A DNA stretch of 64,000 nt, taken from IMG/VR virus record IMGVR_UViG_3300021061_000001. One strand, written 5' to 3'. Below the pieces are notes generated by a model. That model did not search any database. It had not been told where the DNA came from and saw nothing but the letters and a program-made list of their open reading frames with translations. Of this stretch, positions 8,098 through 62,068 are shown one piece after another. A program made the translations under genes and the position numbers. Source of the DNA: a virus. The stretch's first letter is position 1. Every line of letters begins with the position of its first letter.

Positions 8098-8187
8098 TAC
8101 CGCAGCCGCCCCGAGGAAACACTGACCCCGCGCAGCTTCCCCGAGGAGTCCGGCCAGCCGCGCACGCGGCCCGAGGAGTGCTAAGAT
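8098..8187 (+). repeat. three imperfect 30-bp tandem units, each containing CCCGAGGA
   Basis: CCCGAGGA occurs at 8110, 8140 and 8170, exactly 30 nt apart. CCGCGCA occurs at 8128 and 8158. The last unit supplies the RBS of the gene at 8186. Confidence 0.6.
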
Positions 8188-11316: not shown

Positions 11317-12174
11317 ATGGCCCGCAAGGGGAACGGATCATCGGCCAAGCTCGTCGGCCCCAGCCTCGGTTCGGGCCTGACCAGGCTCTCCATCCATCTG
11401 CGCTACCGCAACGACTCCGTTCCCGGCTCGGGGGACATCACGATCCCCGTCCACCTCTCCGACGCGGGCGGGGCCAATTACTCCACGATCTTCGCCTGGA
11501 ACCATTCGTCGGCCGGATCGCGGCAAGCCTGGACCATGGTGCAGGCCGACCACTCGACCCAGACCGTCGCGAAGTACGTGACCAGCCTCCAGGCCAATAC
11601 CTGGTATGACCTCGTCATGACCTGGGACGGCTCCAATCTCAAGGCGTACCTCAACGGCGCATTGGAGACGACCACGGCGGGGGCCGATCCCGACGGGGCG
11701 ATCACGGTCACGCCCAAGTTGCTGGTCTACGATGGGGCGCCCGATGCTTTCTGGGACGACGGCGAGGTCGCCGAGCTCGCGGTCTGGAGCGTGGCCCTGG
11801 ATGCGGCCGAGGCCAATGCACTCGGCAAGGGCTTCTCTCCCTACTTCATCCGCCCAGCTTCGCGGCTCCTCTACGCCCCGCTCATCCGCGAGACGAACAA
11901 CTGGCACGGCACGGCCCTGACCGACACCAGCACCACCGTCACGGACCACCCCGGCGTCATCTATCCGTTCGCGCGTGCGATGCCCCCGGGCCTGACCACC
12001 GTCCAGATGACCCAGACCGGCTCGGTGTCGGAATCGCTGACGGGCGACGACGCGGAGGAGTTCCGGGGGGAGTCGGCCACGGTGGCCGAGGCGTACCGGG
12101 TGAAGGGGATTGCACTGGCGCACACGCCGTATCTGGCCGTAGGGCGGCACCGGCCCAGCCCGCGAGGGAACTGA
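11317..12174 (+). CDS. LamG/concanavalin-like lectin-fold protein (285 aa)
   Basis: The motif WYDLVMTWDGSNLKAYLNG plus a later ElAvW segment is the pattern I associate with the Laminin_G_3 jelly-roll. GGAG RBS. Confidence 0.65.
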   Translation: MARKGNGSSAKLVGPSLGSGLTRLSIHLRYRNDSVPGSGDITIPVHLSDAGGANYSTIFAWNHSSAGSRQAWTMVQADHSTQTVAKYVTSLQANTWYDLVMTWDGSNLKAYLNGALETTTAGADPDGAITVTPKLLVYDGAPDAFWDDGEVAELAVWSVALDAAEANALGKGFSPYFIRPASRLLYAPLIRETNNWHGTALTDTSTTVTDHPGVIYPFARAMPPGLTTVQMTQTGSVSESLTGDDAEEFRGESATVAEAYRVKGIALAHTPYLAVGRHRPSPRGN

Positions 12175-12175
12175 C

Positions 12176-12397
12176 GTGGTGCCGCTCATCAAGGCTTTCG
12201 TCATCAAGCGGTTCAGCGGCTGGTATGTCTGCTTCGGAAGGCCAGACCTGGTGCTGGTGGATGCGGTAGGGCCGCTGGCGAAGAAGGCGGAAGCGAACAA
12301 GGCGCTACAGCGGATCAAGGCCGGGGCCACGACCATGAAGGTGATGCGCCGCATCGCCAAGGCGTACCAGCGAATGGTGGATCTGAGGGAGATATGA
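12176..12397 (+). CDS. small protein (73 aa)
   Basis: GTG start has GAGGGA 6 nt upstream. The stop overlaps the next ATG (ATGA). Confidence 0.5.
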   Translation: MVPLIKAFVIKRFSGWYVCFGRPDLVLVDAVGPLAKKAEANKALQRIKAGATTMKVMRRIAKAYQRMVDLREI

Positions 12398-14652
12398 CCG
12401 ACTTCGCCGAGACGGATCTGGGGCTCCTTTACCTGGCTGACGGCTTCTCGCCGGTCATGCGCTGGGACGGCATCACGCCCTCGATGGAACTGGCCGGGCT
12501 GGCCGCCCCAGCCACGGCCCCGGCCATCACCTCGCCGGGCAGCGGCAGCACGCTCGGGGTGTACTACGCCTACGTCCGCTACAAGGACCGATTCGGCTTC
12601 AAGTCGAACCTGTCGCCGATCTCGGCCGCGGCCATCGTGAAGGGGAACCTGACCGGCACCATCACGGGGGCGACCAACGCCGACCCCATCGTGATCTCGG
12701 CGGCCGGCCACAACCGGGCGACTGGGGACGAGGTGACGATCACCGGCGTGGGGGGCAACACGGCGGCCAACGGCACATGGACGATTACGGTCATCGACGC
12801 TAACTCTTTCTCTCTCGACGGTTCGCAGGGGAGCGGCGCGTACACCTCGGGAGGCTCATGGACGGCCAGCCCCATCATCACCTACACCGGCCTGGCCGTG
12901 CCGACCGATCCCAAGGTGACGCGGCGGCAGATCCTTCGCAACACCGACGGCCAGGCCGACGTGTTCTACGTGGACATCGACACCGACGACCTGACCTCCA
13001 CCACGCTGACCTCGACCCGCACCGACACGGAACTTGCCACGCAGGAGGCTCAAGCGATCCTCGACGATCTGGCCCTGCCGCTGGCCAATCGGCGGGACGT
13101 GCCGCCCAACCACAAGCCGTACCTGTTCCACCTCCTGTCGCGGCTGTTCTACCTGGGGTCGGTGGACTACAAGCGCGGACACGTCAAGGTGACGGTGGCT
13201 TCCACGACGGTGACCGGGGTCGGCACGGACTGGACCGAGGCCATGGAGGGCCGCTACCTGTACGTGACCGGGGCCAACGAATCGTACCTGATCTCGGCGG
13301 TGGACGAGACGGCGCAGACCCTCACCCTGTCCACGGCCTACCTGGGGCCCACGGACCTGTTCGCTCGCTACGCGATCCGGCCAGCACCGGCGGAGCGGCG
13401 GACGATGTACTGGTCCGAAGCTGGCGAACCGGAGGCGGTGAGCGTTTTCAATGCGTTGTCGATCCCGGAGAACTCCGACGAGATCACGGGCGGGTTCGTG
13501 CGCGGCTCGTTCGGTTACATCCTGGAGAAGCGGCACATCCACAAGCTGACGTTCCAGGACGATCCGGCGCGGGACGGGGGGCTGTTCCCGGCCGCCGACC
13601 GGGGCTGCATCAACAACCGCTGCTGGGTGCTGGTGGACTCGACGGCGTACATGCTGGACGAGGAGGGGGTTCATCGTTTCGGCGGCGGCGAAAGCGGGTC
13701 GGTATCGGACGCGATCCAGGACCTGTTCCGGCCGGGGGCGAACGTGCCCTATGCCATCAACTGGCAGGCGCAGGAGCAGTTCCATGCCGGGCACTGGCGG
13801 CAGCACTCGACGATACGCTGGTTCGTCTGCTTCGAGGGGGATTACCTGCCGCGGCACGCGCTCTGTTACAACTACCGCGCCGACAGGTGGTGGATCGAGC
13901 GCTACCCGTTCGCCATCGCCTCGGCGGCCAAGGGGGAGGTCAGGGGCGTGCCGTGTGTGTTCCTGGGCGGAGATGGGCGGCAGGTGTTCGTCTCCTGGGA
14001 GGGGCACCTGGATGTGGCGCAGTCATCCGCAGGAACGGTTCGTGGTACGGCGACATCGGCGGGCGTCCTGTCCCTGTCCGACTCGGGCGCTAGCTTCCCT
14101 GCGTCGTTCGTGGGAGCCCCCGTGGTCATCGTCGCGGGCAAGGGCAAGGGGCAGGAGCGGCGGATCGTGGACGTGAGCGCCACCACGCTCTACCTGGACC
14201 GTCCCTGGCTGGACCGGCCCGACACGACCTCGATCTACCAGGTGGGCGGCATCCAGTGGCAACTGCGGCTGTCGGACTTCCGCTTCGCCGTGGCGGAGGA
14301 GCACAAGGACCGCCGCGTGGAGCTGGTGTTCGAGCCGCAGTCCAGGGCGGCCCTGCTTGACATGCGATACTACTACGACTTCTCGGATACCCCCGTGACC
14401 CAGCGCGAGACAGTGCAGGGCGCGAAGCAGCGGGGCTTCTCTTCGACGGCGGGGCAGACTGATCTGGTGCTGGACCTGACGCGCGTGCGCGGCGTGGCCA
14501 GCCACTTGCTGCCCGACCACCGCGAAGACAGCAGCGAGGGGACGCGCTTCGTGCAACTGGAGTTGGGCGGGTGCTCCAACGGCGAGGAGCAGAAACTGCG
14601 GCAGGTGACCATGAACGGCGTCACCATGCCCGGGCAACTGGAGGCACCCTGA
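12394..14652 (+). CDS. large virion/tail protein (752 aa)
   Basis: Long ORF with balanced composition, coupled at both ends. I recognised no family motif. Confidence 0.8.
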   Translation: MTDFAETDLGLLYLADGFSPVMRWDGITPSMELAGLAAPATAPAITSPGSGSTLGVYYAYVRYKDRFGFKSNLSPISAAAIVKGNLTGTITGATNADPIVISAAGHNRATGDEVTITGVGGNTAANGTWTITVIDANSFSLDGSQGSGAYTSGGSWTASPIITYTGLAVPTDPKVTRRQILRNTDGQADVFYVDIDTDDLTSTTLTSTRTDTELATQEAQAILDDLALPLANRRDVPPNHKPYLFHLLSRLFYLGSVDYKRGHVKVTVASTTVTGVGTDWTEAMEGRYLYVTGANESYLISAVDETAQTLTLSTAYLGPTDLFARYAIRPAPAERRTMYWSEAGEPEAVSVFNALSIPENSDEITGGFVRGSFGYILEKRHIHKLTFQDDPARDGGLFPAADRGCINNRCWVLVDSTAYMLDEEGVHRFGGGESGSVSDAIQDLFRPGANVPYAINWQAQEQFHAGHWRQHSTIRWFVCFEGDYLPRHALCYNYRADRWWIERYPFAIASAAKGEVRGVPCVFLGGDGRQVFVSWEGHLDVAQSSAGTVRGTATSAGVLSLSDSGASFPASFVGAPVVIVAGKGKGQERRIVDVSATTLYLDRPWLDRPDTTSIYQVGGIQWQLRLSDFRFAVAEEHKDRRVELVFEPQSRAALLDMRYYYDFSDTPVTQRETVQGAKQRGFSSTAGQTDLVLDLTRVRGVASHLLPDHREDSSEGTRFVQLELGGCSNGEEQKLRQVTMNGVTMPGQLEAP

Positions 14653-34900: not shown

Positions 34901-35084
34901 GACACGTCCCTCGCAAAAACAAACGGGGTCAGGAACTAGGGATTAAGCAGCAGTTATGGCCAGCGCCCAAGAATGAGCCGGCTATTTCGCGAGTCAGAAA
35001 CTCCCTGACATCCGAGAAGGGGTTATTTTCTTTTTGAACAAGTGTTCCGCTTTCTTTGCCGGGCCTTCGTGGTAGGATTGGTAT

Positions 35085-35118
35085 CTCTCGTGCGCACGCT
35101 GGGGCATGCGCACGAGAG
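35085..35118. promoter_or_regulatory. 12-bp perfect inverted repeat in the divergent region upstream of int
   Basis: CTCTCGTGCGCA - N10 - TGCGCACGAGAG lies 45 nt before the int start. Confidence 0.5.
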
Positions 35119-35162
35119 TGAAAGCCTCCTTGCCGCGTAGCGCGACATAGGGAGGCCCGTCC

Positions 35163-36110
35163 GTGTCCACGATCCGCCTTTTCTCGGGCAACCAGCCCGA
35201 ACCAGCCCTCACCGTGCGCCAGGTCATCGCCGCCTACCTTGACCAGAAGGCGCTCGACCACCTCGCCGGCGCTTTCAGCCTCAAAGCCCTGGAATCGGCC
35301 CGCCATTACCTTGGCCGCTTCGCCAAGGACTTCGGCGATCTGCCCGTCAGCCAGTGCCACAAGAACGATCTGACACACTGGCTGCTCAAGCACCCGGAAT
35401 GGGAATCGACCTTCACCCGCCACGATGCCGTCGGCCGCGTGGTGACGTGCTTTTACTGGGCCGAGGACGAGCTGGGCATCGTCAGCCGCTACCGCCGCCC
35501 CAAGTTCGTGGGCGCCCCCCTGCGCCCACGGCCGGCCATCGAGCCGGCCGAATACCGCGCCATGCAGCGCTATGCTCGCCGGGCCAGGAACACCCGCCGC
35601 ATGCTCCGCACGCGAAACGTATTCCGTGCCGCCTTGTCCTTCCTGTGGCGGACGGGTGCCCGGCCCTGCGAGATGCGCACCGCTCAATGGACCGAACTCG
35701 ACTGGCGCCGAGAGATCATCGTCACCAAGAACAAGACCGAGAAGGCGACCGGCAAGGACCGCATGATCCCCGTCGGCTCCGTCATGCACCTCTTGCGCTG
35801 GCTCTACCGCCGCAAGAAGCCCGGTCAGACGCACATCTTCACCAACACCCTGGGAAAGCCCTGGACGGCCGACCGCTTCGCCAAGGAGTTCCGCCGCTAC
35901 GCCAACCTGGCCGGCGTCCGCCAGAAGGTGAGCGCCTACTGCCTGCGCCATGGCATGTGCGTCCGGCTGCTGGAGAAGGGCGAGGGGGAGAGGCAGATAG
36001 CCGACGTGCTCGGCCACGAATCGACCCGCTACGTGAGCTGGTACGGCAGAACGACCCGGACCATGGCCGACTACCTCAACGACGTGATTCGCCGGAAGAA
36101 GCGGCCCTGA
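35163..36110 (+). CDS. int: tyrosine recombinase / phage integrase
   Basis: 315 aa, GTG start with a GGAGG RBS. It carries WRTGARPCE (Arg), CLRHGMCVR (His-x-x-Arg), VLGHES (His) and YVSWYGR (Tyr). Confidence 0.9.
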   Translation: MSTIRLFSGNQPEPALTVRQVIAAYLDQKALDHLAGAFSLKALESARHYLGRFAKDFGDLPVSQCHKNDLTHWLLKHPEWESTFTRHDAVGRVVTCFYWAEDELGIVSRYRRPKFVGAPLRPRPAIEPAEYRAMQRYARRARNTRRMLRTRNVFRAALSFLWRTGARPCEMRTAQWTELDWRREIIVTKNKTEKATGKDRMIPVGSVMHLLRWLYRRKKPGQTHIFTNTLGKPWTADRFAKEFRRYANLAGVRQKVSAYCLRHGMCVRLLEKGEGERQIADVLGHESTRYVSWYGRTTRTMADYLNDVIRRKKRP

Positions 36111-36346
36111 TTCGCCGACACCTGGCGGGTGTGTTTCGGCCTGTGAGAGGAAGTTGCGCCCCAAGGTCGTGCGCGCGGCCCATCTAGGGTCACGCCCCGA
36201 CGCGCGGCACATTGGTCGGTCTGTGACCGGCCAGTCAAGCGGGTTACCCGCCCAATCGCGGAGGTTTTCGTACTCGACGCGGCGTGCCATTTGGGACTGC
36301 CTTGGTGGACCTTGGATCTGGCTTGGTCAAAGCATAGGCGGCTTAC

Positions 36347-46802: not shown

Positions 46803-47951
46803 ATGGCAGACGAAGCCCCCCTGTTCCAAGCGGACACGTCGGAAGCCGCTCCCGCCAGCACCACTCCCGAACCTTCCGCGCCCGAAACACAGCCGGTCGC
46901 GGAAGCGTCTCCAGAACAACCGGCAGCGCAGCCAGCGCAGCCGTCAAGCCAGCCCGATACCGCAGCACAACAAGCCGCCCAGCCCGCCCAGCAGCCGTGG
47001 TGGTCCAGTCTGGGGGCCGACGAGTCCGCCGCGCAAGCCGCCGTCAACGGCATGCGGCAGCAGCTCGAACAGATGCGGCAACTCGCGCCTTACGCGAACT
47101 TCGTGGCGCAGTATCCGCAGGAAGTCCAGGAGTTCATTCGGGCCCGACACCAGAAGCAGCAACCGGCCGCCGCGCCCGCCACGGAAAAATCGTGGTACGA
47201 CGGGCTGTACGAGGCCCCGGAATACGATCCGGCCTGGCTGACGATGGTGCAGAAGAACCCGACCACGGGCCTGATCGAGTCTTTGCCGGGCTACCCGGCC
47301 GAAATCGGCCTCAAAGTGCAGGCCGCCTTGCACCACCAGCAGCAAGTGCAGCGGCGTTTCCTGGAAAATCCGCCCGAGTTCATCAAGCCCTTCGCGGAGC
47401 GGATCGCCGAGCAGGTGGCCGAAAAGGTCGTGCAGCGGCACCTGGGAGGCCGCGACGAACAGCAACTTCAGCGCGACTTCATCAACCAGAACAACGGCTG
47501 GCTCTACGAGCGCGACGACAAGGGCCAGCAGCGCATGACGCACGTCTGGGATCCCAACACCGGGCGGCAGGTGCAGACGCCGGTCCTGTCCGTGTGGGGC
47601 AAGCGCTACCGCGACCTGCTCAACGAGCGGCACGCCTACCAGATGCAGCGCTTCGGCCAGGCCGACTACCAGGATCAACTGGCGTGGGCGCTGGCGCACG
47701 TCAAGAACGAATACTACGAGTGGGCGCAGCAGCACGGCCAGCCACAGGCCGCAGCGCAGCCCGCTCCGGCACAGCCTGCCGCCGACCCGCGCAGTCCGCG
47801 CGAGAAGGCCAATGAGCAGTGGCTGGCCGGCCAGCCCAAGGCCGGTTCTCGGCCGTCCAACGGAAACACCGCACCCGCCGATACCCCCGTGACCAACAAC
47901 ACGTTCGCATCCCACCTGCTGCGTGAGCTGGAAACAGCCGGCGCGGCATAG
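46803..47951 (+). CDS. scaffolding-like protein (382 aa)
   Basis: ATG at 46803 has a GAGG RBS. It has Pro/Gln/Ala-rich ends and a helical core and lies directly upstream of the capsid gene. Confidence 0.6.
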   Translation: MADEAPLFQADTSEAAPASTTPEPSAPETQPVAEASPEQPAAQPAQPSSQPDTAAQQAAQPAQQPWWSSLGADESAAQAAVNGMRQQLEQMRQLAPYANFVAQYPQEVQEFIRARHQKQQPAAAPATEKSWYDGLYEAPEYDPAWLTMVQKNPTTGLIESLPGYPAEIGLKVQAALHHQQQVQRRFLENPPEFIKPFAERIAEQVAEKVVQRHLGGRDEQQLQRDFINQNNGWLYERDDKGQQRMTHVWDPNTGRQVQTPVLSVWGKRYRDLLNERHAYQMQRFGQADYQDQLAWALAHVKNEYYEWAQQHGQPQAAAQPAPAQPAADPRSPREKANEQWLAGQPKAGSRPSNGNTAPADTPVTNNTFASHLLRELETAGAA

Positions 47952-47973: not shown

Positions 47974-49122
47974 ATGGACCAAGCAACGCTTCGCGCGATC
48001 AACACCACGATCGCCAAGTATTTCAAGACCGTCGAAGAGGCGGTTTTGCGCAAGCGCGTTGTCCTCGCCATGCTCATGAGCAAGGGCAATATCCACATGG
48101 GGGCCTCGGGCCTCAAGATGAACTGGAAGATCCGCTTCAGGCGCACCAGTTCGCAGCCGCTCCTGGGCGGCCAGACCCTGACCTTCGTGCCGCGCGACCA
48201 GTGGCGCACGGCCGAACTGGGCTGGCGCGGTTTCGCCTCCACCAACTCCATCGAGGAGTTCGAGCTGGAGATGAACAAGGGCAAGGAAGCCATCGTCAAC
48301 GTCTGGTCCAACGCGGCCAAGCTGCTCGCCTCGGACATCGAGCAGAACTTCGCCGACCAGCTCTACACCGACGGCGAGGCTTCCGGCCGCGAGTCGGACC
48401 TGCACGGCTTCGAGTCGATCTTCGGCACCAACGGCGTTTCGACCAAGCGCCCCATCGGCATCAACGACGATAGCTACGCCGGTGTCGCCACCGACCTGGC
48501 CTCCGAGGGTGGTTCGTGGTCCACGACCGGCACCAATACGTCGTACACCGACTGGCCCGACGGCCGCGGCGACTACCACTACGACTTCTTCACCCCGCTC
48601 GTGGTCAACTACTCCTCCACGATCTCGACCAGCGCCGGCGCCGGCAACATCGGCTGGTCGGCCTCGACCAAGACCTGGCTCAACACCTGCATCGAGGCGC
48701 TGCGATTCGGCATCCTGGGCTGCTCCAAGAACGACGGCCCCGACGCCAAGATGGACCTCATCATCCTCGAACAGGCCATGATGCGGGACCTCAAGAACAA
48801 GCTCCAGGCCGAGGAGCAGATCACGGTCACGAAGAACACCGGCCCGGGCAGCCCCTACGCCCTGGGCTTCACCGACACGATCAACGTGGACGGCGTGGAC
48901 TGCATGTGGGAGTACGGCGTGCCGGCCAACGTCGGCTACGGCCTGCCTTTGGGCCTCATCGAGCTGCACTCGCTCAAGCCCAAGCTGTTCAACCCCGGCG
49001 GCCCGGACTTCCGCCCCGAGGATCAGTCCTGGCGGATCTGGACCAAGTTCATGGGCAATCTCAAGTTCGGCAACGAGAAGGGCGGCGTGCGGAACTTCCT
49101 CAAGTTCGCCGCTCTCGGCTAA
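47974..49122 (+). CDS. major capsid protein (382 aa)
   Basis: The call rests on size, position after the scaffold-like gene, composition, and the decoration-like gene and terminator that follow. The family was not confirmed. Confidence 0.65.
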   Translation: MDQATLRAINTTIAKYFKTVEEAVLRKRVVLAMLMSKGNIHMGASGLKMNWKIRFRRTSSQPLLGGQTLTFVPRDQWRTAELGWRGFASTNSIEEFELEMNKGKEAIVNVWSNAAKLLASDIEQNFADQLYTDGEASGRESDLHGFESIFGTNGVSTKRPIGINDDSYAGVATDLASEGGSWSTTGTNTSYTDWPDGRGDYHYDFFTPLVVNYSSTISTSAGAGNIGWSASTKTWLNTCIEALRFGILGCSKNDGPDAKMDLIILEQAMMRDLKNKLQAEEQITVTKNTGPGSPYALGFTDTINVDGVDCMWEYGVPANVGYGLPLGLIELHSLKPKLFNPGGPDFRPEDQSWRIWTKFMGNLKFGNEKGGVRNFLKFAALG

Positions 49123-49177: not shown

Positions 49178-49798
49178 ATGAACAGTCCCTTGATGGAACG
49201 CGGCCAGACGGCATACGGCCCGACCGCGTCCATTGACACCAACGCTCTCAAGTTCGTGCACTGGGAGGGCAAGGAGTTCACCTTCGAGGACATCGACTAC
49301 AACGATGTCTCGGTGGGGACCAAGCCGCTCCGCTCCAAGGCCATGGTCAAGTGCCGCATCGTGCGGAATATGTCGAGCGCCACCCTGCTTCCCAAGCGGC
49401 TGGCGCGGCTCAAGAAGTCGGGCCTCGACATCCTATCCCGCGTGGACGGCTATGCCTGCACCACGGCGGACGGCCCGTGCTACCCCATCGACGAGTTCCT
49501 GCCCGCGGCCGGTGTGCGGCACGGCGATCTCTTTTACGTCGTCGTCGAAGGCCCGGCCATGGTGCTCACCGACATTGCCTCGGGGGCCAACAACCTGATC
49601 TCGGTCGGCGACTGGCTCGTGTCCCTGACCGGCGCCACCACCGGCGCCACCACGTCGGGCCGCGTCAAGCCGCAGGACCTCACCGGCGCCACCGCCCTGC
49701 TCGGCAACGAGATCCAGCACCGCATCGGTCGGGCGCTGTCGGCCCAGACCACGGCCAACACGGCCAACAGCCTGCTCATGAACGTGACGAAGTTCTGA
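49178..49798 (+). CDS. capsid-associated (decoration-like) protein (206 aa)
   Basis: It lies immediately after the capsid gene and is followed by a hairpin. Confidence 0.55.
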   Translation: MNSPLMERGQTAYGPTASIDTNALKFVHWEGKEFTFEDIDYNDVSVGTKPLRSKAMVKCRIVRNMSSATLLPKRLARLKKSGLDILSRVDGYACTTADGPCYPIDEFLPAAGVRHGDLFYVVVEGPAMVLTDIASGANNLISVGDWLVSLTGATTGATTSGRVKPQDLTGATALLGNEIQHRIGRALSAQTTANTANSLLMNVTKF

Positions 49799-49816: not shown

Positions 49817-49850
49817 GGCCCGGTCTGGCACCTGCCAGGCCGGGCTTTCC
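49817..49850 (+). terminator. candidate partial terminator after the capsid genes
   Basis: A 10-bp stem (CCCGGTCTGG / CCAGGCCGGG, one G-U pair) with a 6-nt loop is followed by CTTTCC. Confidence 0.4.
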
Positions 49851-49868: not shown

Positions 49869-50612
49869 ATGTCGGCCACCTGTCACCCCCGCCACATCCA
49901 GATCGACTACCGCCCTGGCACCCAGGACGAAGAAGCCTTCCGCGAAGTCATGTCCGAAAACTGCTACCGCCTCCCTTCGCGGCTCCGCGCCGACGACGTG
50001 GTGGTGGACGTAGGCGCGCACATCGGCAACTTTTCCCTGGCCTGCATCCTGCGCGGTGCTGGCCGCGTCCTGGCCTTCGAGCCGGACCGGGACAACTTCC
50101 GCTATCTGACCAGCAACCTCGAGCGCTGGATCGGCGCCACCGCCCGCAACGCCGCCGTCTGGCGCAGCGACAAGATCGAACAGGTCCATTTCACCGGCTA
50201 CCCGGCGCAGAACGCCTTCCTGGACGCCGCCCCCTACGCCAACGCCTGCGGCTCGTGCATGCCGCAGGTGAACGTGAGCGGGGTCAATGAGCGCCGCCCC
50301 GTGGAATCCGTGCCCCTGGACCAGATCCTGGAAGGCATCGCGGCGGACGGCAAGCGCGTGCGGCTACTCAAACTTGACTGCGAAGGAGCCGAGTTCCCCA
50401 TCCTCTACACCTCCAAGCGGCTCGATCTCGTTGACGAGATTTGCGGCGAACTGCACGATTTCGGCCTGCGCGGCCTGCCGCCGATGGTGGAGGGATTCAC
50501 CGACTACGACATGGACGAGATGGCCTACTACCTGGAGGGCCAGGGCTTCGACGTGGACGTGGAGCCCAATAGCCAGAGCCGGCAAATGTTCCTGTTCTGG
50601 GCCAGGCGCTAG
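49869..50612 (+). CDS. FkbM-family SAM-dependent methyltransferase
   Basis: VVDVGAHIGNFSL (motif I) and LLKLDCEGAEFPIL match the FkbM pattern. Confidence 0.75.
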   Translation: MSATCHPRHIQIDYRPGTQDEEAFREVMSENCYRLPSRLRADDVVVDVGAHIGNFSLACILRGAGRVLAFEPDRDNFRYLTSNLERWIGATARNAAVWRSDKIEQVHFTGYPAQNAFLDAAPYANACGSCMPQVNVSGVNERRPVESVPLDQILEGIAADGKRVRLLKLDCEGAEFPILYTSKRLDLVDEICGELHDFGLRGLPPMVEGFTDYDMDEMAYYLEGQGFDVDVEPNSQSRQMFLFWARR

Positions 50613-50640
50613 CCGCCACACCCTTACCCCCGAGGACACG

Positions 50641-51564
50641 ATGACCCCCGCGAAACTGAACATTCTCCTGGCCGGCTTCCCCTATGGCGGCAACGGCGCG
50701 ACCAGTTCCGAGGTGCCGTGCCTGCGCCACTGGTTCGCCAAGGTGGTGGTCGCAGCCAAGAAGGACGAGCGCGTTGGCGACATCTGGGCCATGGATTTCT
50801 CGGACACGCCCATCACGATGACCCGCAACGCGGCCGTGCTCAAGGCAAGACAACTGGGGGCCGACGTGCTGGTCATGTTCGATTCGGACCAGAAGCCCGA
50901 CATGCTCCTGGGCCAGGACCCGACCGCCAAGCCCTTCTTCGAGTCCAGTTTCGACTTCCTCTACGAGCGCAAGCAGCAAGGAAAGGCGACCTCGATCTGC
51001 GCCCCTTACTGCGGCGCGCCGCCCGAGCGGGTGCCGTTCTGCTTCACCTGGACCACCGACGACCCGGACCATCCCGACGGTCACGCACGGATGCGGCTCC
51101 TGACCCGCGAGGAAGCGGCCCTGCGCATGGGCATTCACGAGGTTCCGGCTCAGCCGACCGGCCTCATCATGTTCGACATGGACCTGTTCGAGATCACCGA
51201 CCCCAAGCACGAGTTCGAGCGCATGCTTCAGGCCGGTTATCCGCGGCAGATCGCTCAGGCGGTCACCAAGCCGTGGTTCTACTACGAGTGGCCGGACATT
51301 TATGCGGCCCGCAAGGACTCGACCGAGGACGTGACGGCCACGCGCGACATGGGGCTCGCGTGCATCAACGCCCGCGGCTACAACCCGCTCTTTTGCAACT
51401 ACGACGCCTGGGCCGGGCACTGGAAGCCGGAATGCGTTGGCAAGCCCAGGCCGATCAGTGGCGATGCCGTGAACGAGAAGTACCGCACTGCGGCCCTCAA
51501 AGGCAAGCAGTCCGGCGAAAGGCTGGTGCATGTCCGTGCCAACGGACAGCTTGTGAGCGCCTAG
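50641..51564 (+). CDS. glycosyltransferase-like protein (GT-A-type motifs), 307 aa
   Basis: ATG at 50641 has a GAGGA RBS. It contains VLVMFDSDQ (DxD-like) and a later STEDV...RD...G segment. The family was not confirmed. Confidence 0.5.
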   Translation: MTPAKLNILLAGFPYGGNGATSSEVPCLRHWFAKVVVAAKKDERVGDIWAMDFSDTPITMTRNAAVLKARQLGADVLVMFDSDQKPDMLLGQDPTAKPFFESSFDFLYERKQQGKATSICAPYCGAPPERVPFCFTWTTDDPDHPDGHARMRLLTREEAALRMGIHEVPAQPTGLIMFDMDLFEITDPKHEFERMLQAGYPRQIAQAVTKPWFYYEWPDIYAARKDSTEDVTATRDMGLACINARGYNPLFCNYDAWAGHWKPECVGKPRPISGDAVNEKYRTAALKGKQSGERLVHVRANGQLVSA

Positions 51565-51607: not shown

Positions 51608-51925
51608 ATGTTCGCACAGGCTCCGCCAGACTGGCTCAACAACTGGGAGCGCTTCGGCTATGGCGGCATCAGCTTCCTCATGGCGGCCACGATGTTCTGG
51701 TTCTACGGCCGCCACTGGTTTCTGCGGCAGATCAAGCTGGCGGACATCTGCATCCGGGACAAGCGGATGTCGCGCAAGAGGCTCAGATGGGCGCACAGGC
51801 GGCTTCAAGAGGCCCTGCAAGGACTGGAAGAGGCACAGGCGGAACTGGTGGCCACCAAGGCCAAGGTGATCGAACTCGAACTGAGGCTCAGCCATGCAGA
51901 CCGTCCTGGTGATCGAGGACAGTAG
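51608..51925 (+). CDS. membrane protein with coiled-coil tail (105 aa), holin/spanin-like candidate
   Basis: It has one hydrophobic segment (GGISFLMAATMFWFY) followed by a charged helix. Confidence 0.5.
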   Translation: MFAQAPPDWLNNWERFGYGGISFLMAATMFWFYGRHWFLRQIKLADICIRDKRMSRKRLRWAHRRLQEALQGLEEAQAELVATKAKVIELELRLSHADRPGDRGQ

Positions 51926-52325
51926 CGAACTGGCCAAATTGTGGCAGCAGACCCTACCCGGCTTCGGCTTGCATGTGAGGCTGGCCGGCTCGCTCAGGGA
52001 GGCATTCGTGGCGCTAGCAGCAGAGGTCCCCGACTGCATCGTCCTTGATCTGTGCCTGCCAAACGGTGCCGGGGTCAACTGCGTTAAGGCAGTGCGGGCC
52101 GTCGCGGCCGACACCCCGTTGATCGTGGTCACTGGCTCGATCGAGCCGGGGCTGCGGGAAAGATGCCTGGCGGCAGGCGCGGATGTGTACTTGGAAAAGC
52201 CGACCGGGGTCAAGGACATGGTGCGGGAGATCAAGGTGGCGATCGCGACGCGCAGCACGCTGGCCGAGTGCGGCCGGCATATCGAGTCGGCCCGGCGCGG
52301 GCTGGCCTGCACGCGAGGGATGTGA
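51894..52325 (+). CDS. stand-alone CheY-like response-regulator receiver domain (143 aa)
   Basis: VLVIEDS (E8, D9), IVLDLCLP (D52), LIVVTG (T80) and YLEKP (K102) give the full receiver signature. No output domain is present. Confidence 0.8.
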   Translation: MQTVLVIEDSSELAKLWQQTLPGFGLHVRLAGSLREAFVALAAEVPDCIVLDLCLPNGAGVNCVKAVRAVAADTPLIVVTGSIEPGLRERCLAAGADVYLEKPTGVKDMVREIKVAIATRSTLAECGRHIESARRGLACTRGM

Positions 52326-52954
52326 TGAGCGAAGAACGCCTGCATGCTCTGGAAGGCGCGTTGACGGAACTGCGTACCCGGCTGTCCGCCGTCGAAACGC
52401 ATGCCGTCGAGATGGACCACCGGATCGACGTGCTGGAGGAACCCAACCCAATCGTCGTCAAGGCCAGGGGCTGGCTCGGCTGGCTGTGGGAAAACAGGCC
52501 CGAGTGGCGAACACTCCTGCCTTACCTCATCATCGCCGCCCTGCTCCTGCGCGGCGGTCAGGGCTGCGACATCCGCTGCGACCGGCTGCCGATCCCCGAC
52601 TGGGTCAATCCGATTCCTGTCCCCAAGGGGGACCTGCGCGTCGTGGTCATCTACGAGTCGGCCGATGAGCACAAACTACCGGCCGGTCAGCGCAACATCA
52701 TCATGGGCCAGAAATTCCGCGACTGGGTGACGGCCCACTGCGGCAAGTCCGATGGCAGGACGGCCGACTTCCGCGCCTACGACAAGGACACCGACACCGC
52801 CAACGATTATCCGTGGGCGCAAGAGGCCATGAAGCGGCCGCGTGCCGAACTGCCGTGGATCGTGGTCATCAAGGGAACCTCGATCGTTCACGAGGGCAAA
52901 TTGCCCGCCGACCCGGACCAGGCGATTTCGCTCTTGTCGAAGTACGGAGCCTGA
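52325..52954 (+). CDS. coiled-coil / TM / C-terminal globular domain protein (209 aa)
   Basis: ATG overlaps the upstream TGA. The hydrophobic segment is LLPYLIIAALLL. Confidence 0.6.
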   Translation: MSEERLHALEGALTELRTRLSAVETHAVEMDHRIDVLEEPNPIVVKARGWLGWLWENRPEWRTLLPYLIIAALLLRGGQGCDIRCDRLPIPDWVNPIPVPKGDLRVVVIYESADEHKLPAGQRNIIMGQKFRDWVTAHCGKSDGRTADFRAYDKDTDTANDYPWAQEAMKRPRAELPWIVVIKGTSIVHEGKLPADPDQAISLLSKYGA

Positions 52955-52955
52955 G

Positions 52956-53765
52956 ATGCCCGACATCATCACCATCACCGACGACAACTATCGTGGCTTC
53001 ATCGACTCGGCCGATGACATGCCGGGCGACCACAAGGGGCTCACCCCTCGCGACTTCGCCACCTTCCCGGTCGGCCACTACGCCAACGCTGGCCCGATCG
53101 ATTTCCCCCTCTTCTCCGATGAGCAGATCGAGAAGGAGATCAGGAACCAGGAGGAGAACGGTTCCTCGCTCGAACATCTGCGAATGACTTACGACGGCGG
53201 CAAGCCGATCGACGCCCTGGACCAGAACGGGCAGGGCTATTGCTGGGCCTACTCGACGACTTCCTGCGTGACCCTGGCGCGGGCCAAGCAGGGCATGCCC
53301 TACGAGCCGCTGTCGGGGCACATGATCGGCTGCATCATCAAGAACTATCGCAACCAGGGCGGTTGGAACGCGCAATCGATGCAGTTCGCGCAGGAGCATG
53401 GCGTGGCCTCGCAAAAGTTCTGGCCCGCCAAGTCGATGTCGCGCTCCAACGACACGCCCGAGATGCGCGAGGACGCCCGCAAGCGCCGCATTACCGAATG
53501 GTGGGACCTGTCGGACGATCCCGAGACGGTCAAGCGGCAGTTGGCGACCCTGCTCCTGCTCAACTGCCCGGTGGCGGTGGACTTCAACTGGTGGTTGCAC
53601 TCGGTCTGTGCCATCCGGCTCATGTCGTGGCGGCCGTTCAAGATCAGGATTCTCAATTCGTGGTCCAATAGCTGGTCGAAATTGGGCATGGGCGACCTCG
53701 AAGGGGGCCGGGCCATTCCCAACGGCGCGATCGCGCCGCGCGTCATCACCGCCAAGGCGGCCTGA
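52956..53765 (+). CDS. papain-family (C1-like) cysteine peptidase (269 aa)
   Basis: QNGQGYCWAYS (Gln and Cys), WWLHSV (His) and ILNSWSNSWSKLGMG (Asn-Ser-Trp) appear in the canonical order. Confidence 0.7.
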   Translation: MPDIITITDDNYRGFIDSADDMPGDHKGLTPRDFATFPVGHYANAGPIDFPLFSDEQIEKEIRNQEENGSSLEHLRMTYDGGKPIDALDQNGQGYCWAYSTTSCVTLARAKQGMPYEPLSGHMIGCIIKNYRNQGGWNAQSMQFAQEHGVASQKFWPAKSMSRSNDTPEMREDARKRRITEWWDLSDDPETVKRQLATLLLLNCPVAVDFNWWLHSVCAIRLMSWRPFKIRILNSWSNSWSKLGMGDLEGGRAIPNGAIAPRVITAKAA

Positions 53766-53779
53766 AAGGAAGGTGTTCC

Positions 53780-54331
53780 ATGAAGAAGTTCATCGACAAC
53801 CGGCACGTCTACATCGGTCTGGGCATCTTCGCGGCTGTGCTGGTGCTGGCCATCTCGCTCGGCGCCTTCCAGTCGAAAGCCAACCCCATCCTGCCGCCGC
53901 CTCCCGTGCCGGATCAGGTGCCTGTCATCGACGACGACAAGCGACCGGACGGCTTTCTGGAACCCAAACCGGAACCCGTCAAGAAACAGGCGAGCAGCCC
54001 TTATTGTGATCCGTCCTGCTCCTGCGGATGCCAGGGGGGCGGGTCGTGCGTCTGCTACATGACCATGCGAGCCAGAGCGATCAAGGAGGGGGCTGGTCTG
54101 GTGGTCTGGATCGGCTGCCGGCGCGGCACAGGCTACGACGATCATTTGCACTGCGAAGTGAAGTCGCTGCCTGGCTTCGAGGGGTTCAAGGGGCATGTCA
54201 TCAGCTACGTCAGGAACGGCGAGTTGTGGTTCGCCAGGGCGGTGCCGCACGCGGCCATGCAGGCCCCGAGGCAACCAGTGTTCTTCCAGCCGGGCGGTGG
54301 AGTCGTGCGCATGCGCGGACGCTCGTGCTGA
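53780..54331 (+). CDS. N-terminally anchored Cys-rich protein (183 aa)
   Basis: It has the TM segment VYIGLGIFAAVLVLAISLGAF, a Pro-rich linker and CDPSCSCGCQGGGSCVC. Confidence 0.6.
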   Translation: MKKFIDNRHVYIGLGIFAAVLVLAISLGAFQSKANPILPPPPVPDQVPVIDDDKRPDGFLEPKPEPVKKQASSPYCDPSCSCGCQGGGSCVCYMTMRARAIKEGAGLVVWIGCRRGTGYDDHLHCEVKSLPGFEGFKGHVISYVRNGELWFARAVPHAAMQAPRQPVFFQPGGGVVRMRGRSC

Positions 54332-55295: not shown

Positions 55296-55706
55296 ATGCC
55301 GAAGAAGAAGTCCGCGAGCAAACGAACCGAAGAAGCCATGCTCGTGGAGACGATGCGCGGAGCCCTCCAGACCCGCAACACCGGCATGCTCCGCGAGATC
55401 ATGGAAGAGACGATGAACCTGGCCGGCGGAACCAGGTGCTTCGCGAAGCTCTTGTGGGATGCGTACACGTCCTCTGACGCCGGGCCGCTCTTGCGGTCAC
55501 GCATCCTGGACGTGTGGATGAGAGCCCTGATGGTGACCCAGCCCAAGGGCGACCCCGACAACGATCTTGGCGCACTCAGCGCCGAGGACATCGACAGGGA
55601 GATGAAGGAGTTGATCGGTGCCGTTCGATCCGAGCAAAATGCCGCCGACGCCGCCCAAGAGGACCACCACCTCGAAGGCGACGACGACAGCGCCGAAGAA
55701 GAATAG
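55296..55706 (+). CDS. candidate small terminase subunit (136 aa)
   Basis: Assigned by position directly upstream of, and overlapping, the large subunit gene. It has a basic N-terminus and an acidic tail. Confidence 0.45.
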   Translation: MPKKKSASKRTEEAMLVETMRGALQTRNTGMLREIMEETMNLAGGTRCFAKLLWDAYTSSDAGPLLRSRILDVWMRALMVTQPKGDPDNDLGALSAEDIDREMKELIGAVRSEQNAADAAQEDHHLEGDDDSAEEE

Positions 55707-57372
55707 CGTGCCCGAAGCGCCGCCGCCTGGGATGCCCGAGCACAAGCTGGCCCGCTTCCGCAAGCTGCTCGTCGCTCGCGCCAAGCTGCGCATGGAAGGG
55801 CTCAAGCTGTTCGAGCCCATGCCGGTGCAGACCGCCTTCCTCTCCTCCTCCTGCCGCGAACGCATCGTCTATGGGTCCAACCGCAGTGGCAAGACAACGG
55901 TGGCCATGGTGGACCTGGCCCGCATCCTGACCGGCCAGGACCCGCTCGGCCGCCTGCCGCGCGAGAACCTGATCTGGTATGTGGTTGGCAAGGACGGCCG
56001 CGAGCTGGCCAACGTCGTTCACAAGAAACTGTTCATGCCCGCCTGCTTCCAGATCATCCGCGACGAACGGACCCGGCAGTGGCGAGCCTTCCGGCCTTAT
56101 CAGGAGGCGGACGCCCAGAGAGAGCAGGAAGCACGCTGGGCTCCGCCCCTGATCCCGGAGCGGTTCGTCCGCGAGGTGTCGTGGGAGAACAAGAAGGAAG
56201 GGCTGCCCAAGCTGGTGAAGCTCATCAACGGCTCGGAGATCCACTTCTTCTCGGGCAACGCCCGTCCGCCACACGGCTCGTCGATTCACGGGGCGAACTT
56301 CGACGAGGAAGTGCCCGACGGCTGGTATGCCGAGATCGCGGCCCGCCTGGTGGACTACCGCGGCTACTTCACCTGGTCGGCCACGCCCGAGCAGGGCACG
56401 GACCAGCTCCTCATCCTGCACGAACGGGCGATGGGGGAGATGGAGCGGTTCATGCAGACCGGCGTCAAGCCGTCCATCGAAGAGTATTTCATGGCCATCC
56501 ACGGCAACCGGCACCTGACCCGGGAGCAGGTGGAGGAGTTCGAGTCGAAGCTGACCGACGAGCAGAAGCGGGTCAAGGTCTACGGCGAGTTCCTGCAGCT
56601 TGGCGCGTCGGTGTTCCCCGAGTTCCTGCCATCGCTGCATGTCGTGGACCAGTTCCCGATCCCGCTCGACTGGACGCGCTACCTTTACATCGACCCCGGT
56701 TATCAGGTGTGTGCGGTCCTGTTCATGGCCGTGCCCGACCCTCGCGACGAGAAGCACGCCGGTTACAGGTACGTCTACGACGAACTGTACCTCTACAACT
56801 GCAACGCGGACCTGTTCGGCCGCAAGATGCGCGAGAAGTGCGAGGGGCAGGACTTCGAGGCGTTCCTGATCGACGAGCACGAGGCGCGCAAGCACTCGGC
56901 CGGCGACGGCAAGACTCTGGCCTCGCAGTATTCGGAGGCCCTGAGCCGCTACAAGATTCGTTCGCGCACGACCGGCTACGGTTTCTCGCCCGGCTCGGAC
57001 GATCCCAAGGCCGACGTGGCGGCCATTCGCGACTGGCTGCGTAACCGGCCCGACAAGGGGCCGATCCTGCGCGTCTTTCCCAAGGACGCCATCCCCAACT
57101 TCCACTACGAGATCACGCACTGGCGGTTCAAGAAGGACGCCAAGGGGCTGGTTACGGATGAACCCGAATCGCGCGGGCGCGTTCACCTCATGGCGGGGCT
57201 GCGCGGGCTGGTGCAGTGCGATCCGCAATGGGTCAGGCCCAAGCACATGCCGGCACCGGACGAGATCCAGCGCATCATCGCCGAGGACCGCAGGCGCGAG
57301 AAGGCCCTGTATGGCGACGGCCCCGCGGTGTTTTGCGGCCCGCGCGGCGCGCGGGTGGGGGTGGGGGCATGA
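55618..57372 (+). CDS. terL: terminase large subunit
   Basis: Walker A is GSNRSGKT and the Walker B-like segment is GANFDEE. The product is 584 aa. GTG start has AAGGAG 7 nt upstream. Confidence 0.85.
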   Translation: MPFDPSKMPPTPPKRTTTSKATTTAPKKNSVPEAPPPGMPEHKLARFRKLLVARAKLRMEGLKLFEPMPVQTAFLSSSCRERIVYGSNRSGKTTVAMVDLARILTGQDPLGRLPRENLIWYVVGKDGRELANVVHKKLFMPACFQIIRDERTRQWRAFRPYQEADAQREQEARWAPPLIPERFVREVSWENKKEGLPKLVKLINGSEIHFFSGNARPPHGSSIHGANFDEEVPDGWYAEIAARLVDYRGYFTWSATPEQGTDQLLILHERAMGEMERFMQTGVKPSIEEYFMAIHGNRHLTREQVEEFESKLTDEQKRVKVYGEFLQLGASVFPEFLPSLHVVDQFPIPLDWTRYLYIDPGYQVCAVLFMAVPDPRDEKHAGYRYVYDELYLYNCNADLFGRKMREKCEGQDFEAFLIDEHEARKHSAGDGKTLASQYSEALSRYKIRSRTTGYGFSPGSDDPKADVAAIRDWLRNRPDKGPILRVFPKDAIPNFHYEITHWRFKKDAKGLVTDEPESRGRVHLMAGLRGLVQCDPQWVRPKHMPAPDEIQRIIAEDRRREKALYGDGPAVFCGPRGARVGVGA

Positions 57373-61024: not shown

Positions 61025-62068
61025 ATGTCTCTGAACGTAGCAATCGAACCTCGTCTGGCGAAGGCCCTCAAGGACGACGGACTGGCCCGCGACCTCGTAA
61101 CGGACATCAACGCCGTCCTCGACGGCAGCCTGGGCGACACGACTCCCGGCACGGTCGAAGCCTCCAAGGTCGTGGTGGTGGATTCCAACAAGGACATCTC
61201 CAGTTTCCGCAACGTCGGGCTCACCGGCGACCTGACCCTGGCCAGCGGCGGCAATCTCGTCCTCAGCGGGGCAACGGGCGAGTCGGAAATCATCCTCACC
61301 GACAACCTGGCCGATGCCCTGTCCGTCAAAATCTCGGGCGGCGCGGACTTCTTCGTGTTCTGCACCACCGACTCGGCCGAGAAGCTGACCCTCGCCCAGG
61401 ACTTCCACCTCATCGGCGGCAAGGACTTGGTATTCACGGGGGCAACCGGCGAGTCGGAGATCCACCTGACGGATAACCTGGCGGACGCTCTTTCGGTCAA
61501 GATCGCTGGCGGGGCCGATTTCCTCGTCTGCGTCACCACCGATTCCGCCGAGAAGATCAACATTTCGCAGGACGTTCACTTGATCGGCGGCAAAGACCTC
61601 TTGTTCGTCGGGGCCACGGGCGAGTCCGAAATCCACCTGACCGACAACCTCGCCGATGCCCTGTCGGTGAAGATCGCGGGCGGTGCCGACTTCCTGGTGT
61701 TCGTGACCACGGACTCGGCCGAAGGGATCACGGTCGGCCAGCATCTGACCATGGCCGACGCCAAGAACATCATCCTCAACACCACGACCGGCACGAAGAT
61801 CGGCACGGCCACGACCCAGAAGCTGGGCTTCTACAACGCCACGCCGGTCGCGCAGCCCGCCGCGCTGACCGCGCAGCTTACGACCATCACGCATACCGCT
61901 CCGGGTAGCGACGACTTCGCCATCCAGAACCTGACCAATTCCTCGCCCTTCGGCTTCGTGACGGCGGACGAAGGCAACACGGTCCTCAAGGTGATCGCCA
62001 ACTTGCAGGCCAGACTGGCCGAAGTGGAAGCCCGTCTCGAAGCTCTCGGACTCGTGGCCGCCAACTAA
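61025..62068 (+). CDS. virion fibre/decoration protein with three 57-aa tandem repeats (347 aa)
   Basis: The repeat is GATGESEI.LTDNLADALSVKI.GGADF.V..TTDSAE. The C-terminus ends in the coiled coil LQARLAEVEARLEALG. Confidence 0.75.
   Translation: MSLNVAIEPRLAKALKDDGLARDLVTDINAVLDGSLGDTTPGTVEASKVVVVDSNKDISSFRNVGLTGDLTLASGGNLVLSGATGESEIILTDNLADALSVKISGGADFFVFCTTDSAEKLTLAQDFHLIGGKDLVFTGATGESEIHLTDNLADALSVKIAGGADFLVCVTTDSAEKINISQDVHLIGGKDLLFVGATGESEIHLTDNLADALSVKIAGGADFLVFVTTDSAEGITVGQHLTMADAKNIILNTTTGTKIGTATTQKLGFYNATPVAQPAALTAQLTTITHTAPGSDDFAIQNLTNSSPFGFVTADEGNTVLKVIANLQARLAEVEARLEALGLVAAN

Follow-up and report, generated by a model that had tools for sequence, protein, structure and literature searches.

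A phage-restricted GT-A-fold glycosyltransferase paired with an FkbM-type methyltransferase: a candidate module for virion glycosylation in an uncultured temperate phage lineage

Record IMGVR_UViG_3300021061_000001 of the IMG/VR collection is a viral DNA sequence, and the stretch of 64,000 nucleotides analysed here is referred to below as the window. Our subject is a pair of genes encoding a predicted S-adenosylmethionine (SAM)-dependent methyltransferase (MT) and a predicted glycosyltransferase (GT) of 307 amino acids (aa). The pair spans positions 49869–51564, from the start codon of the first gene to the stop codon of the second, both on the plus strand. It lies directly after the capsid and decoration genes, as stated in the original prediction, which had been made from the sequence letters alone; the capsid gene was recognized by its match to phrog_9953 and the decoration gene by fold matching. 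The two genes and the motifs of the second product are as follows.

49869–50612, plus strand: FkbM-family SAM-dependent methyltransferase, 247 aa, soluble, predicted sugar O-methyltransferase (PF05050, TIGR01444)
50641–51564, plus strand: GT-A fold glycosyltransferase of an orphan family, 307 aa, soluble, predicted to be metal-dependent and inverting (AlphaFold and Foldseek)
50881–50889, plus strand: DxD motif D81-S82-D83 at the C-terminal end of strand 76–81, invariant in the alignment of 51 homologues
51322–51330, plus strand: xED motif T228-E229-D230 at the start of helix 229–245, putative catalytic base, invariant in the 51 homologues
51409–51420, plus strand: WAGH motif with invariant His260, candidate C-terminal metal-binding histidine of the GT-A core, assigned by motif order only

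The start of the GT gene was placed at the ATG at 50641, which is preceded by a GAGGA ribosome-binding site 7 nt upstream, and all homologues in the 51-sequence alignment begin at MTPAKLN. A longer open reading frame (ORF) starting at 50287 (425 aa) was discarded as an artefact: it is out of frame, it overlaps the MT gene, and homologues start at 50641. Family assignment with profile hidden Markov models, which had been proposed along with the original prediction, was achieved for the MT; the 307-aa protein had no match in Pfam, PHROGs, NCBIfam or PDB sequences (phmmer and profile search). When 51 members of its family were compared with Pfam at E ≤ 1, the sole match was a weak one to Nucleotid_trans (0.17). 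Sequence libraries thus gave no identity, and only structure prediction resolved the protein. The AlphaFold model, built on 51 homologues, had a mean predicted local distance difference test score (pLDDT) of 89.4 and a predicted template modelling score (pTM) of 0.85. Foldseek comparison with PDB yielded 109 matches at E ≤ 1e-3 with GT-A enzymes leading, the top ones being COLGALT1 (2.4e-7), STIV A197 (4e-6), ppGalNAc-T, LH3, and B4GALNT1. These are metal-dependent GT-A enzymes and viral GT-A proteins, and several of them (COLGALT1, LH3, ppGalNAc-T) are protein glycosyltransferases. Against BFVD, 81 matches were obtained, phage GT-A proteins first; the best (3e-11) was a 788-aa FkbM/GT-A fusion. 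The glycosyltransferase fold on which the original prediction stood or fell was thereby recovered in the model, and the DSD and TED motifs that it had pointed out proved invariant in the 51 homologues.

The DSD motif follows strand 76–81, and the invariant stretch around the second motif extends to S227-T228-E229-D230, where helix 229–245 begins. G125 (in APYCG) and H260 (in WAGH) were also invariant and in the right linear order, their placement being judged by this order and not by three-dimensional superposition. As described by Taujale et al. (2020; PMC7185993), the GT-A core combines a Rossmann-like fold with a DxD motif after the fourth strand, a G-loop glycine, an xED motif at the start of a helix and a C-terminal histidine, and the xED aspartate is the base of inverting enzymes. 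All four elements (DSD, G-loop, TED, and His) were present in the family, invariant and in canonical order. The protein has no transmembrane segment (maximum Kyte-Doolittle 19-residue score 0.83). The model and the motifs support well the view that it is a soluble, metal-dependent GT-A glycosyltransferase of a family unclassified by sequence, with its activity predicted; from the TED aspartate we infer an inverting mechanism.

The search for relatives gave 1,336 homologues at E ≤ 1e-3, all unnamed. An exhaustive profile search of 1.84 billion cluster representatives retrieved 735 protein clusters (defined at 50% identity), and since 664 of them scored below 1e-10, the family boundary is sharp, with no bridge to known glycosyltransferase families. 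The 307-aa protein had no match at 1e-5 in a tblastn search of INPHARED, whose 50,697 phage records include actinobacteriophages, so that the link to actinobacteriophages drawn in the original prediction is retained as an analogy only. IMG/VR held 417 contigs with a GT relative. Among 185,579 species genomes there were only 10 relatives, all on phage-sized contigs of metagenome-assembled genomes (MAGs). The GT family is restricted to phages, essentially without cellular members, and belongs to one phage lineage. It lies outside existing Pfam or CAZy-type sequence families (Pfam serving as a proxy for CAZy), and the nearest structures, COLGALT1 (GT25), STIV A197, ppGalNAc-T (GT27), and LH3, share 10–15% identity with it. 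With 1,336 GT homologues and rigid synteny, the pair is far beyond chance.

The MT matched PF05050 (Methyltransf_21/FkbM; E 6.2e-16, 59.4 bits against a cut-off of 22.7, profile positions 1–172 of 173) and TIGR01444 (fkbM_fam; 3.3e-20, 73 bits, cut-off 37.7), in agreement with its earlier reading as an FkbM-type SAM methyltransferase. Its SAM motif VVDVGAHIGNFS contains the class I motif I VVDVGAHIG (residues 44–52), which follows the pattern V/I-x-D-x-G-A-x-x-G, and it has no transmembrane segment. The nearest relatives (45–51% identity) are encoded on contigs of the same phage lineage, and the first named cellular relative (42% identity) comes from a Gemmataceae MAG. The genomic context of cellular FkbM homologues was uninformative. 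On two large Planctomycete-like contigs (L264, 5519–7738; L265, 5912–7777), a cellular FkbM homologue was located immediately 3' of a class Ib aminoacyl-tRNA synthetase gene, a conserved pairing. Members of the FkbM family O-methylate hydroxyl groups (PMC12085832). This family knowledge, together with the interchange with TylF and Methyltransf_24 domains in relatives, leads us to predict that the MT O-methylates a sugar hydroxyl.

Coupling of the GT with methyltransferases is a recurrent trait of the family. In the vicinity of the GT, 8 loci had a separate FkbM gene, 23 had a Methyltransf_24 domain fused to the C-terminus of the GT, and 5 had Methyltransf_24 as a gene of its own. Among the best 150 cluster representatives, 104 carried a C-terminal extension, which was Methyltransf_24 in 85 of these; the other extensions scanned were Methyltransf_11, _23, _25, TylF (macrocin sugar O-methyltransferase, 4e-52) or FkbM. 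Such repeated fusion to at least six MT families is strong Rosetta-stone evidence that GT and MT act on one product, which would most simply be a methylated sugar.

The 307-aa protein might conceivably lack glycosyltransferase activity and be a sugar-nucleotidyltransferase-like protein, a structural protein of GT-A fold or an enzyme of small molecules. No sequence family could be assigned to it, and RmlA-type nucleotidyltransferases, which share the superfold, matched the model at about 1e-4. The best fold matches, however, are all true glycosyltransferases, and the invariant DxD, xED, and C-terminal His constitute the glycosyltransferase catalytic signature. The strong conservation of these polar residues over 735 clusters argues for catalysis, and the fusions to sugar-type O-methyltransferases fit a sugar product. 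We therefore regard an inactive or differently acting protein as quite improbable.

The Pfam scan of the 54 further ORFs of the window identified 20 Pfam families, with matches to integrase, helix-turn-helix (HTH) regulators, RusA, DUF932, PD-(D/E)XK nuclease, HNH, SU10-type adaptor, and lectin-like tail proteins. In these ORFs the scan detected no DNA polymerase, sugar-nucleotide synthesis genes, GtrA/GtrB or GT2; nor, with some ORFs remaining unannotated, did it detect a hydroxymethylase, thymidylate-synthase-like protein, TET/JBP or DNA C5-methyltransferase. The tyrosine integrase (35163–36110, plus strand; PF00589, 1.2e-19) is located 14 kb from the pair. A 453-aa minus-strand ORF at 34929–36290 was rejected as spurious, having neither record nor domain, and the integrase on the plus strand is the real gene; many long shadow ORFs occur in the window because its GC content is high. 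The element is a temperate phage of ~68 kb and probably podovirus-like. The SU10-type adaptor (8186–9373) is consistent with a podovirus-like tail, and three putative tail/adhesin proteins (11317–12174, 12394–14652, and 61025–62068, plus strand) contain Laminin_G_3 lectin-like (6.8e-12), E1_FCCH-like (1.7e-6), and DUF2807 adhesin-head (6.3e-6) domains. INPHARED contained no match for the GT or the capsid protein, and the large terminase is only 22–25% identical to those of Bruynoghevirus-like podophages; by this comparison the lineage is without a cultured relative. Ten related phage-sized contigs (L008–L017, 52–78 kb) had been binned to unrelated phyla (seven lineages), three of them to Planctomycetota; the bin labels were Alphaproteobacteria, Rubrivivax, Chitinophagales, Planctomycetales, Pirellulaceae, Thermoguttaceae, Peribacteria, Chloroflexota, and Caldilineaceae. 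These bins probably represent mis-binned phage genomes, which makes host inference from them unsafe, and there are weak hints of Planctomycetota as the host.

The gene content of the window also bears on whether the GT could glycosylate phage DNA, the MT acting in the same pathway to a hypermodified base that protects from restriction. TET-associated glycosyltransferases were found among the BFVD matches (1e-5 to 2e-4), the GT gene abuts packaging genes, and phage DNA glycosyltransferases are widespread (bioRxiv 10.1101/2023.12.21.572611). Yet the base-modifying domains listed above were all missing from the Pfam scan, the partner MTs are of O-methyltransferase type (FkbM, Methyltransf_24, TylF) and not DNA methyltransferases, and ordinary GT-A matches were far stronger than TET-associated ones. 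DNA glycosylation was rejected, as no base-hydroxymethylating enzyme was found, and is in our opinion very improbable.

From ~46.8 kb to the end of the window, the plus strand forms a single co-oriented block of head and packaging genes in the order scaffold-like, capsid, 206-aa protein, MT and GT pair, several small genes, small-terminase-like, large terminase, and portal. The features of this block that surround the pair are listed below.

46803–47951, plus strand: scaffold-like head protein, P/Q/A-rich at the N-terminus, whose gene opens the rightward head/packaging block directly 5' of the capsid gene; kept in 47 related loci
47974–49122, plus strand: major capsid protein (phrog_9953 major head protein, E 6e-19; conserved synteny)
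49178–49798, plus strand: predicted capsid decoration/cement protein, 206 aa, beta-tulip gpD / phi29 gp8.5-base type (AlphaFold and Foldseek)
49625–49693, plus strand: Thr-rich loop LTGATTGATTSGRVKPQDLTGAT, decoration protein residues 150–172, candidate O-glycosylation sites (conservation and covariation)
49817–49846, plus strand: GC-rich 13-bp hairpin followed by UUUCCC, between the decoration and MT genes (minimum free energy −36.8 kcal/mol, z −3.2)
55296–55706, plus strand: small-terminase-like gene, with a positional homologue in ~78 loci; role suggested by its position 5' of the large terminase
55732–57372, plus strand: large terminase subunit, 546 aa, right-hand boundary of the variable accessory region (PF03237, 1.1e-9; phrog_2, 4.9e-14)

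The scaffold-like protein (gene call of 382 aa in L006) had no family match in Pfam or PHROG, and a scaffold role is suggested by position only. For the collection scans, the large terminase and the decoration protein served as seeds. All 102 loci holding GT, decoration, and large terminase genes share one order, with the GT situated between the decoration and terminase genes: scaffold, capsid, decoration, a variable insert of 0–3 kb, GT, small-terminase-like, large terminase, and portal. In most relatives the small-terminase-like gene directly follows, or overlaps, the GT gene. The insert carries head-fibre-like accessory genes (PTL_trimer; a weak Phage_head_fibr match), and 42 loci encode, between decoration and GT genes, a protein of ~390 aa that is rich in P/Q/G/Y, appears to be disordered and has no family match. 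Examples are found at L048 8776–9942, L029 7955–9130, and L020 8850–9938, and the window has no such gene; this protein could serve as another acceptor, or act at the capsid surface or in ejection. Among relatives chosen by the large terminase, 31 of the 46 loci with enough upstream sequence contained the GT. In L106 and L109, decoration, small terminase, and large terminase genes stand in direct succession with no GT between them. Because it is absent from 15 of the 46 terminase-defined loci, the GT is a frequent accessory gene and not a core assembly gene.

Two further features were seen at this locus in relatives. The large-terminase ORF is extended to ~850–900 aa, compared with ~560 aa, in L019 (2818–5505), L038 (11543–14245), L039, L055, L057, L077, L085, and L086, which suggests an intein or an inserted domain. 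An Endonuclease_7 (homing-endonuclease-like) gene separates the capsid and decoration genes in one relative (L001 6004–6450, L002 1063–1509).

The AlphaFold model of the 206-aa protein had pLDDT 87.3 and pTM 0.86. Its Foldseek matches were the base of the phi29 head fibre gp8.5, a capsid-binding base (6qyy, 2.6e-4), and decoration or cement proteins of Sf11 (4.3e-4), E217 (6.8e-4), TW1 (1.9e-3), Pam3 (2.8e-3), T1, and others, with lambda gpD and P21 SHP further down the list. The gene is located directly 3' of the capsid gene in more than 70 loci. Model and position support its assignment as a capsid decoration (cement) protein of beta-tulip, gpD-like type. In 46 homologues, the Thr-rich segment LTAATSGATTAGRVxPQDLTGAT has invariant T151, T158, T159, G161, T169, and T172; a second conserved segment is SAxTTANT.

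To compare loci with and without the GT gene (GT-positive and GT-negative), 126 distinct decoration proteins were used, 76 from positive and 50 from negative loci, and threonines were counted in the 13 alignment columns that correspond to window residues 150–162. Decoration proteins of GT-positive loci usually had four threonines in these columns, and at least three in 73 of 76 cases; those of GT-negative loci usually had one, and at least three in 5 of 50, the loop being deleted or replaced. On a tree built from the N-terminal 126 residues only, with the loop left out, presence of the GT switched three times, and the loop switched along each time. One switch is at L098, another at the L106 clade, and the third falls between clades L135/L144 and the lower positive group. 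The Thr-rich loop LTGATTGATTSGR is thus present in GT-positive relatives and missing in negative ones across three independent transitions. A regular-expression test of the Thr-rich motif was dropped, since it matched a non-homologous C-terminal 'ATSATTSGR' in negative clades, and the column-based counts were used instead. Scans with single decoration proteins from negative loci retrieved near-identical contigs only.

In one GT-negative clade (L135 7652–8230, L142, L188, L192, L193, L198, L200), the decoration protein, which has no Thr-rich loop, ends in a long Thr/Pro/Asp/Glu-rich tail (e.g. TTPDATATPTTEPVVAPV). This tail resembles O-glycosylated linkers, though no glycosyltransferase is encoded nearby.

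If virion glycosylation is accepted, the sugar may be attached to a structural protein other than the decoration protein, such as the major capsid protein, a tail protein or a head fibre, and in relatives also the P/Q/Y-rich protein of ~390 aa. The acceptors in mycobacteriophages are capsid and tail-tube subunits, and the capsid protein of the window (47974–49122) has at residues ~214–226 a private Ser/Thr/Gly/Ala-rich insertion STISTSAGAGNIG, absent from most relatives; the capsid protein of L001 carries a different insertion at the same site. The low-complexity protein of the 42 related loci, encoded between decoration and GT genes, would be a further candidate. On the other hand, no capsid-protein feature tracking GT presence was found, neither the P/Q-rich protein nor the head-fibre-like genes occur in the window, many GT-positive loci lack them too, and the decoration loop was the only covarying feature found. 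Another acceptor within the virion is accordingly an unlikely, though real, competitor to the decoration loop.

One sigma-70-like site was identified 5' of the scaffold gene and none before the MT/GT pair. The hairpin at 49817–49846 is likely an attenuator or weak terminator. Relatives (L250, L067, L082, L070, and others) have canonical intrinsic terminators, hairpin and U-tract, at the same place, which suggests that transcriptional attenuation at this point, setting the abundant head proteins apart from the enzymes and packaging genes that follow, is conserved. The pair is probably transcribed late, via read-through, below the level of the capsid protein. Late expression at such a reduced level suits enzymes acting on abundant structural substrates. 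Of the proposal that the pair is part of a late operon with the capsid genes, the co-oriented plus-strand block remains; with the 13-bp hairpin in between, read-through or attenuated transcription is probable.

Modification of a host envelope glycan (lipopolysaccharide O-antigen, capsule or exopolysaccharide, S-layer glycan) is the other role that had been suggested for the pair. It would serve lysogenic conversion and superinfection exclusion, or keep newly formed phage from adsorbing again to the dying host. In favour of this role, the phage is temperate and encodes an integrase and HTH regulators; GT-A and FkbM/TylF-type enzymes are common in polysaccharide pathways; the GT is accessory and moron-like, and the terminator-like hairpin upstream could delimit a separate unit. 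In the known case of Gtr-type O-antigen cassettes, a temperate phage likewise carries an accessory GT-A-fold enzyme. GtrB, however, is a membrane-anchored GT2 whose substrate is bactoprenol phosphate; it depends on a flippase as well as on a membrane glycosyltransferase specific to the serotype, and the cassette is adjacent to the integrase. None of these features (membrane anchor, GtrA, GT2, integrase adjacency) holds for the pair, and Gtr-type seroconversion was rejected. Neither enzyme has a transmembrane segment, and no flippase or GtrA/GtrB/GtrC-type partner was found in the 54+ ORFs of the window. A distance of 14 kb separates the pair from the lysogeny module; it shares the orientation of the late packaging genes, with no sigma-70-like promoter of its own, and in relatives the GT gene often overlaps the small-terminase-like gene. 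Moreover, the GT family is essentially without cellular members, and the GT covaries with a feature of a virion protein. Host-glycan modification is in our estimate as doubtful as the use of another virion acceptor.

A virion target is thus favoured because both enzymes are without transmembrane segments and far from the integrase, because GtrA/GtrB, sugar-nucleotide and DNA-hypermodification genes were not found in the window, and because the GT gene is fixed between decoration and terminase genes while the loop covaries with it. Precedents, namely mycobacteriophage virion glycosylation and PBCV-1 A064R, support this choice. Of the two roles hedged in the original prediction, the comparative evidence favours virion glycosylation as the more probable one over host-glycan modification. 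GT and MT would together form a two-enzyme glycan-decorating module for the virion surface. Late in infection, the soluble GT would take a nucleotide-sugar from the host, bind a divalent metal through DSD and His260, and, with Asp230 of TED as the catalytic base, would O-glycosylate Thr/Ser residues. The most likely acceptor would be the loop LTGATTGATTSGR of the decoration protein, which is encoded two genes upstream of the GT. The FkbM enzyme would then O-methylate the attached sugar with SAM, and the outcome would be a capsid coat of short methylated glycans. We infer the acceptor and the sugar donated to it, which of the enzymes acts first, and the benefit, which may lie in shielding, stability or adhesion. 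Cytoplasmic O-glycosylation and O-methylation of the capsid decoration protein, with the Thr-rich loop as acceptor, accounts for the observations described above and is the explanation that we prefer; in our judgement it is about evenly balanced between true and false.

Several observations weigh against this explanation. The TM-scores of the Foldseek matches were modest (0.3–0.54), and the RmlA-type nucleotidyltransferases mentioned above matched as well. No MT was encoded within 10 kb in 66 GT-positive loci (~65%). The covariation amounts to only ~3 independent events, and since the 3' end of the adjacent decoration gene encodes the loop, linkage or cassette hitch-hiking could partly explain it; the highly variable 0–3 kb insert between the decoration gene and the GT argues against simple linkage. 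GT-negative genomes were scored around this locus only, and their decoration proteins are still fairly Ser/Thr-rich. Finally, the hairpin/terminator parts the pair from the capsid genes, and in relatives the GT gene is translationally coupled, often by overlap, to the small-terminase-like gene instead.

To our knowledge, the demonstration of virion glycosylation by phage enzymes is recent and limited to a few mycobacteriophages, in which it alters immune recognition. It was described for Che8, Corndog, and Myrna by Freeman et al. (2023), as cited in PMC11256854, PMC12619734, and PMC12363180. According to these citing accounts, phage-encoded soluble glycosyltransferases, sometimes with an MT, act in the cytoplasm and attach glycans covalently to virion proteins of the same phage, which gives the particle a glycan coat; temperate phages are among the examples. 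This resembles the scheme proposed here. The mycobacteriophage enzymes (Che8 gp110 / Corndog gp38 type) differ in having no sequence match to the 307-aa protein (tblastn, INPHARED). Their acceptors, as far as described in the same accounts, are the C-termini of capsid and tail-tube subunits, whereas the candidate here is an internal Thr-rich loop of a separate decoration protein; they have an actinobacterial host and several glycosyltransferases, whereas here the host is uncultured and not an actinobacterium, and there is one glycosyltransferase.

An architectural parallel is offered by the chlorovirus PBCV-1, in which A064R (with A061L) is a GT-GT-methyltransferase enzyme of the capsid glycan: a GT-A domain with DxD is joined to a SAM MT that O-methylates the terminal sugar (PMC9614988). 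Relatives of the GT share this type of GT-MT fusion, while the window has separate genes, and the likeness demonstrated is one of architecture, not of sequence homology. In this giant virus of eukaryotes the major capsid protein bears the glycan through an N-linkage, and building it takes many glycosyltransferases (PMC9614988). FlmG of Caulobacter is likewise a soluble glycosyltransferase which modifies Ser/Thr of an abundant self-assembling protein, flagellin, in the cytoplasm before assembly; it is cellular, has another glycosyltransferase architecture and uses nonulosonic-acid donors, and so serves as a mechanistic analogue only (PMC7591256). Self-glycosylation by phages and glycosylation of giant-virus capsids were thus known already. 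New are the unclassified phage-only GT-A family, its systematic fusion with sugar-type MTs, its fixed site beside the decoration gene in a large lineage of uncultured phages, and the candidate acceptor loop.

Downstream of the pair, the genes described earlier as lysis-like fit that description only loosely: besides small membrane proteins and a papain-like peptidase, they encode a CheY-like receiver. The latter, a response-regulator receiver domain that stands alone (51894–52325, plus strand; PF00072, 9.5e-20; phrog_731), is encoded two genes after the GT, an unusual position for a phage-borne orphan receiver, inside a head/packaging block. A receiver-domain gene is also located 3' of the decoration gene in L098 and is present in L016. 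In the window, the receiver gene is followed by three genes (52325–52954, 52953–53765, and 53780–54331, plus strand). The middle one encodes a papain-family protein (Peptidase_C1, 5.6e-7; active-site-like motif QGYCWAYS); of the flanking products, one is a coiled-coil protein of 209 aa that contains a hydrophobic segment, and the other, of 183 aa, has a transmembrane helix at its N-terminus and a stretch rich in Cys. The pair of 209-aa and C1 proteins was found again in L025 and L145, and the trio might be an unconventional lysis cassette.

In its widest form, our proposal is that a phage-only GT-A family, usually fused to sugar O-methyltransferases, O-glycosylates a decoration-protein loop and so provides a methylated-sugar coat in an abundant uncultured temperate lineage, possibly on Planctomycetota and other phyla. 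We hold this wider statement tentatively, and with somewhat less confidence than the decoration-protein mechanism itself. A glycosylated decoration protein was not reported in the literature searched; if the proposal is true, it would be the first case of decoration-protein glycosylation and the first virion glycosylation system outside actinobacteriophages. Virion glycosylation would be widespread in environmental phages, as judged by the 417 IMG/VR contigs and 735 clusters, through an enzyme family missed completely by current annotation and directed at a decoration protein instead of the capsid subunit. Glyco-engineering would gain a new GT-A family whose peptide acceptor is defined, and GT and MT together would make a compact toolkit for displaying methylated sugars on phage capsids. 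The module would be genetically switchable, as natural relatives with and without the GT gene exist, and this presence/absence series would allow the roles of capsid glycans to be probed outside a mammalian host, be it in stability, in adhesion to polysaccharide matrices or in evasion of hosts and grazers.

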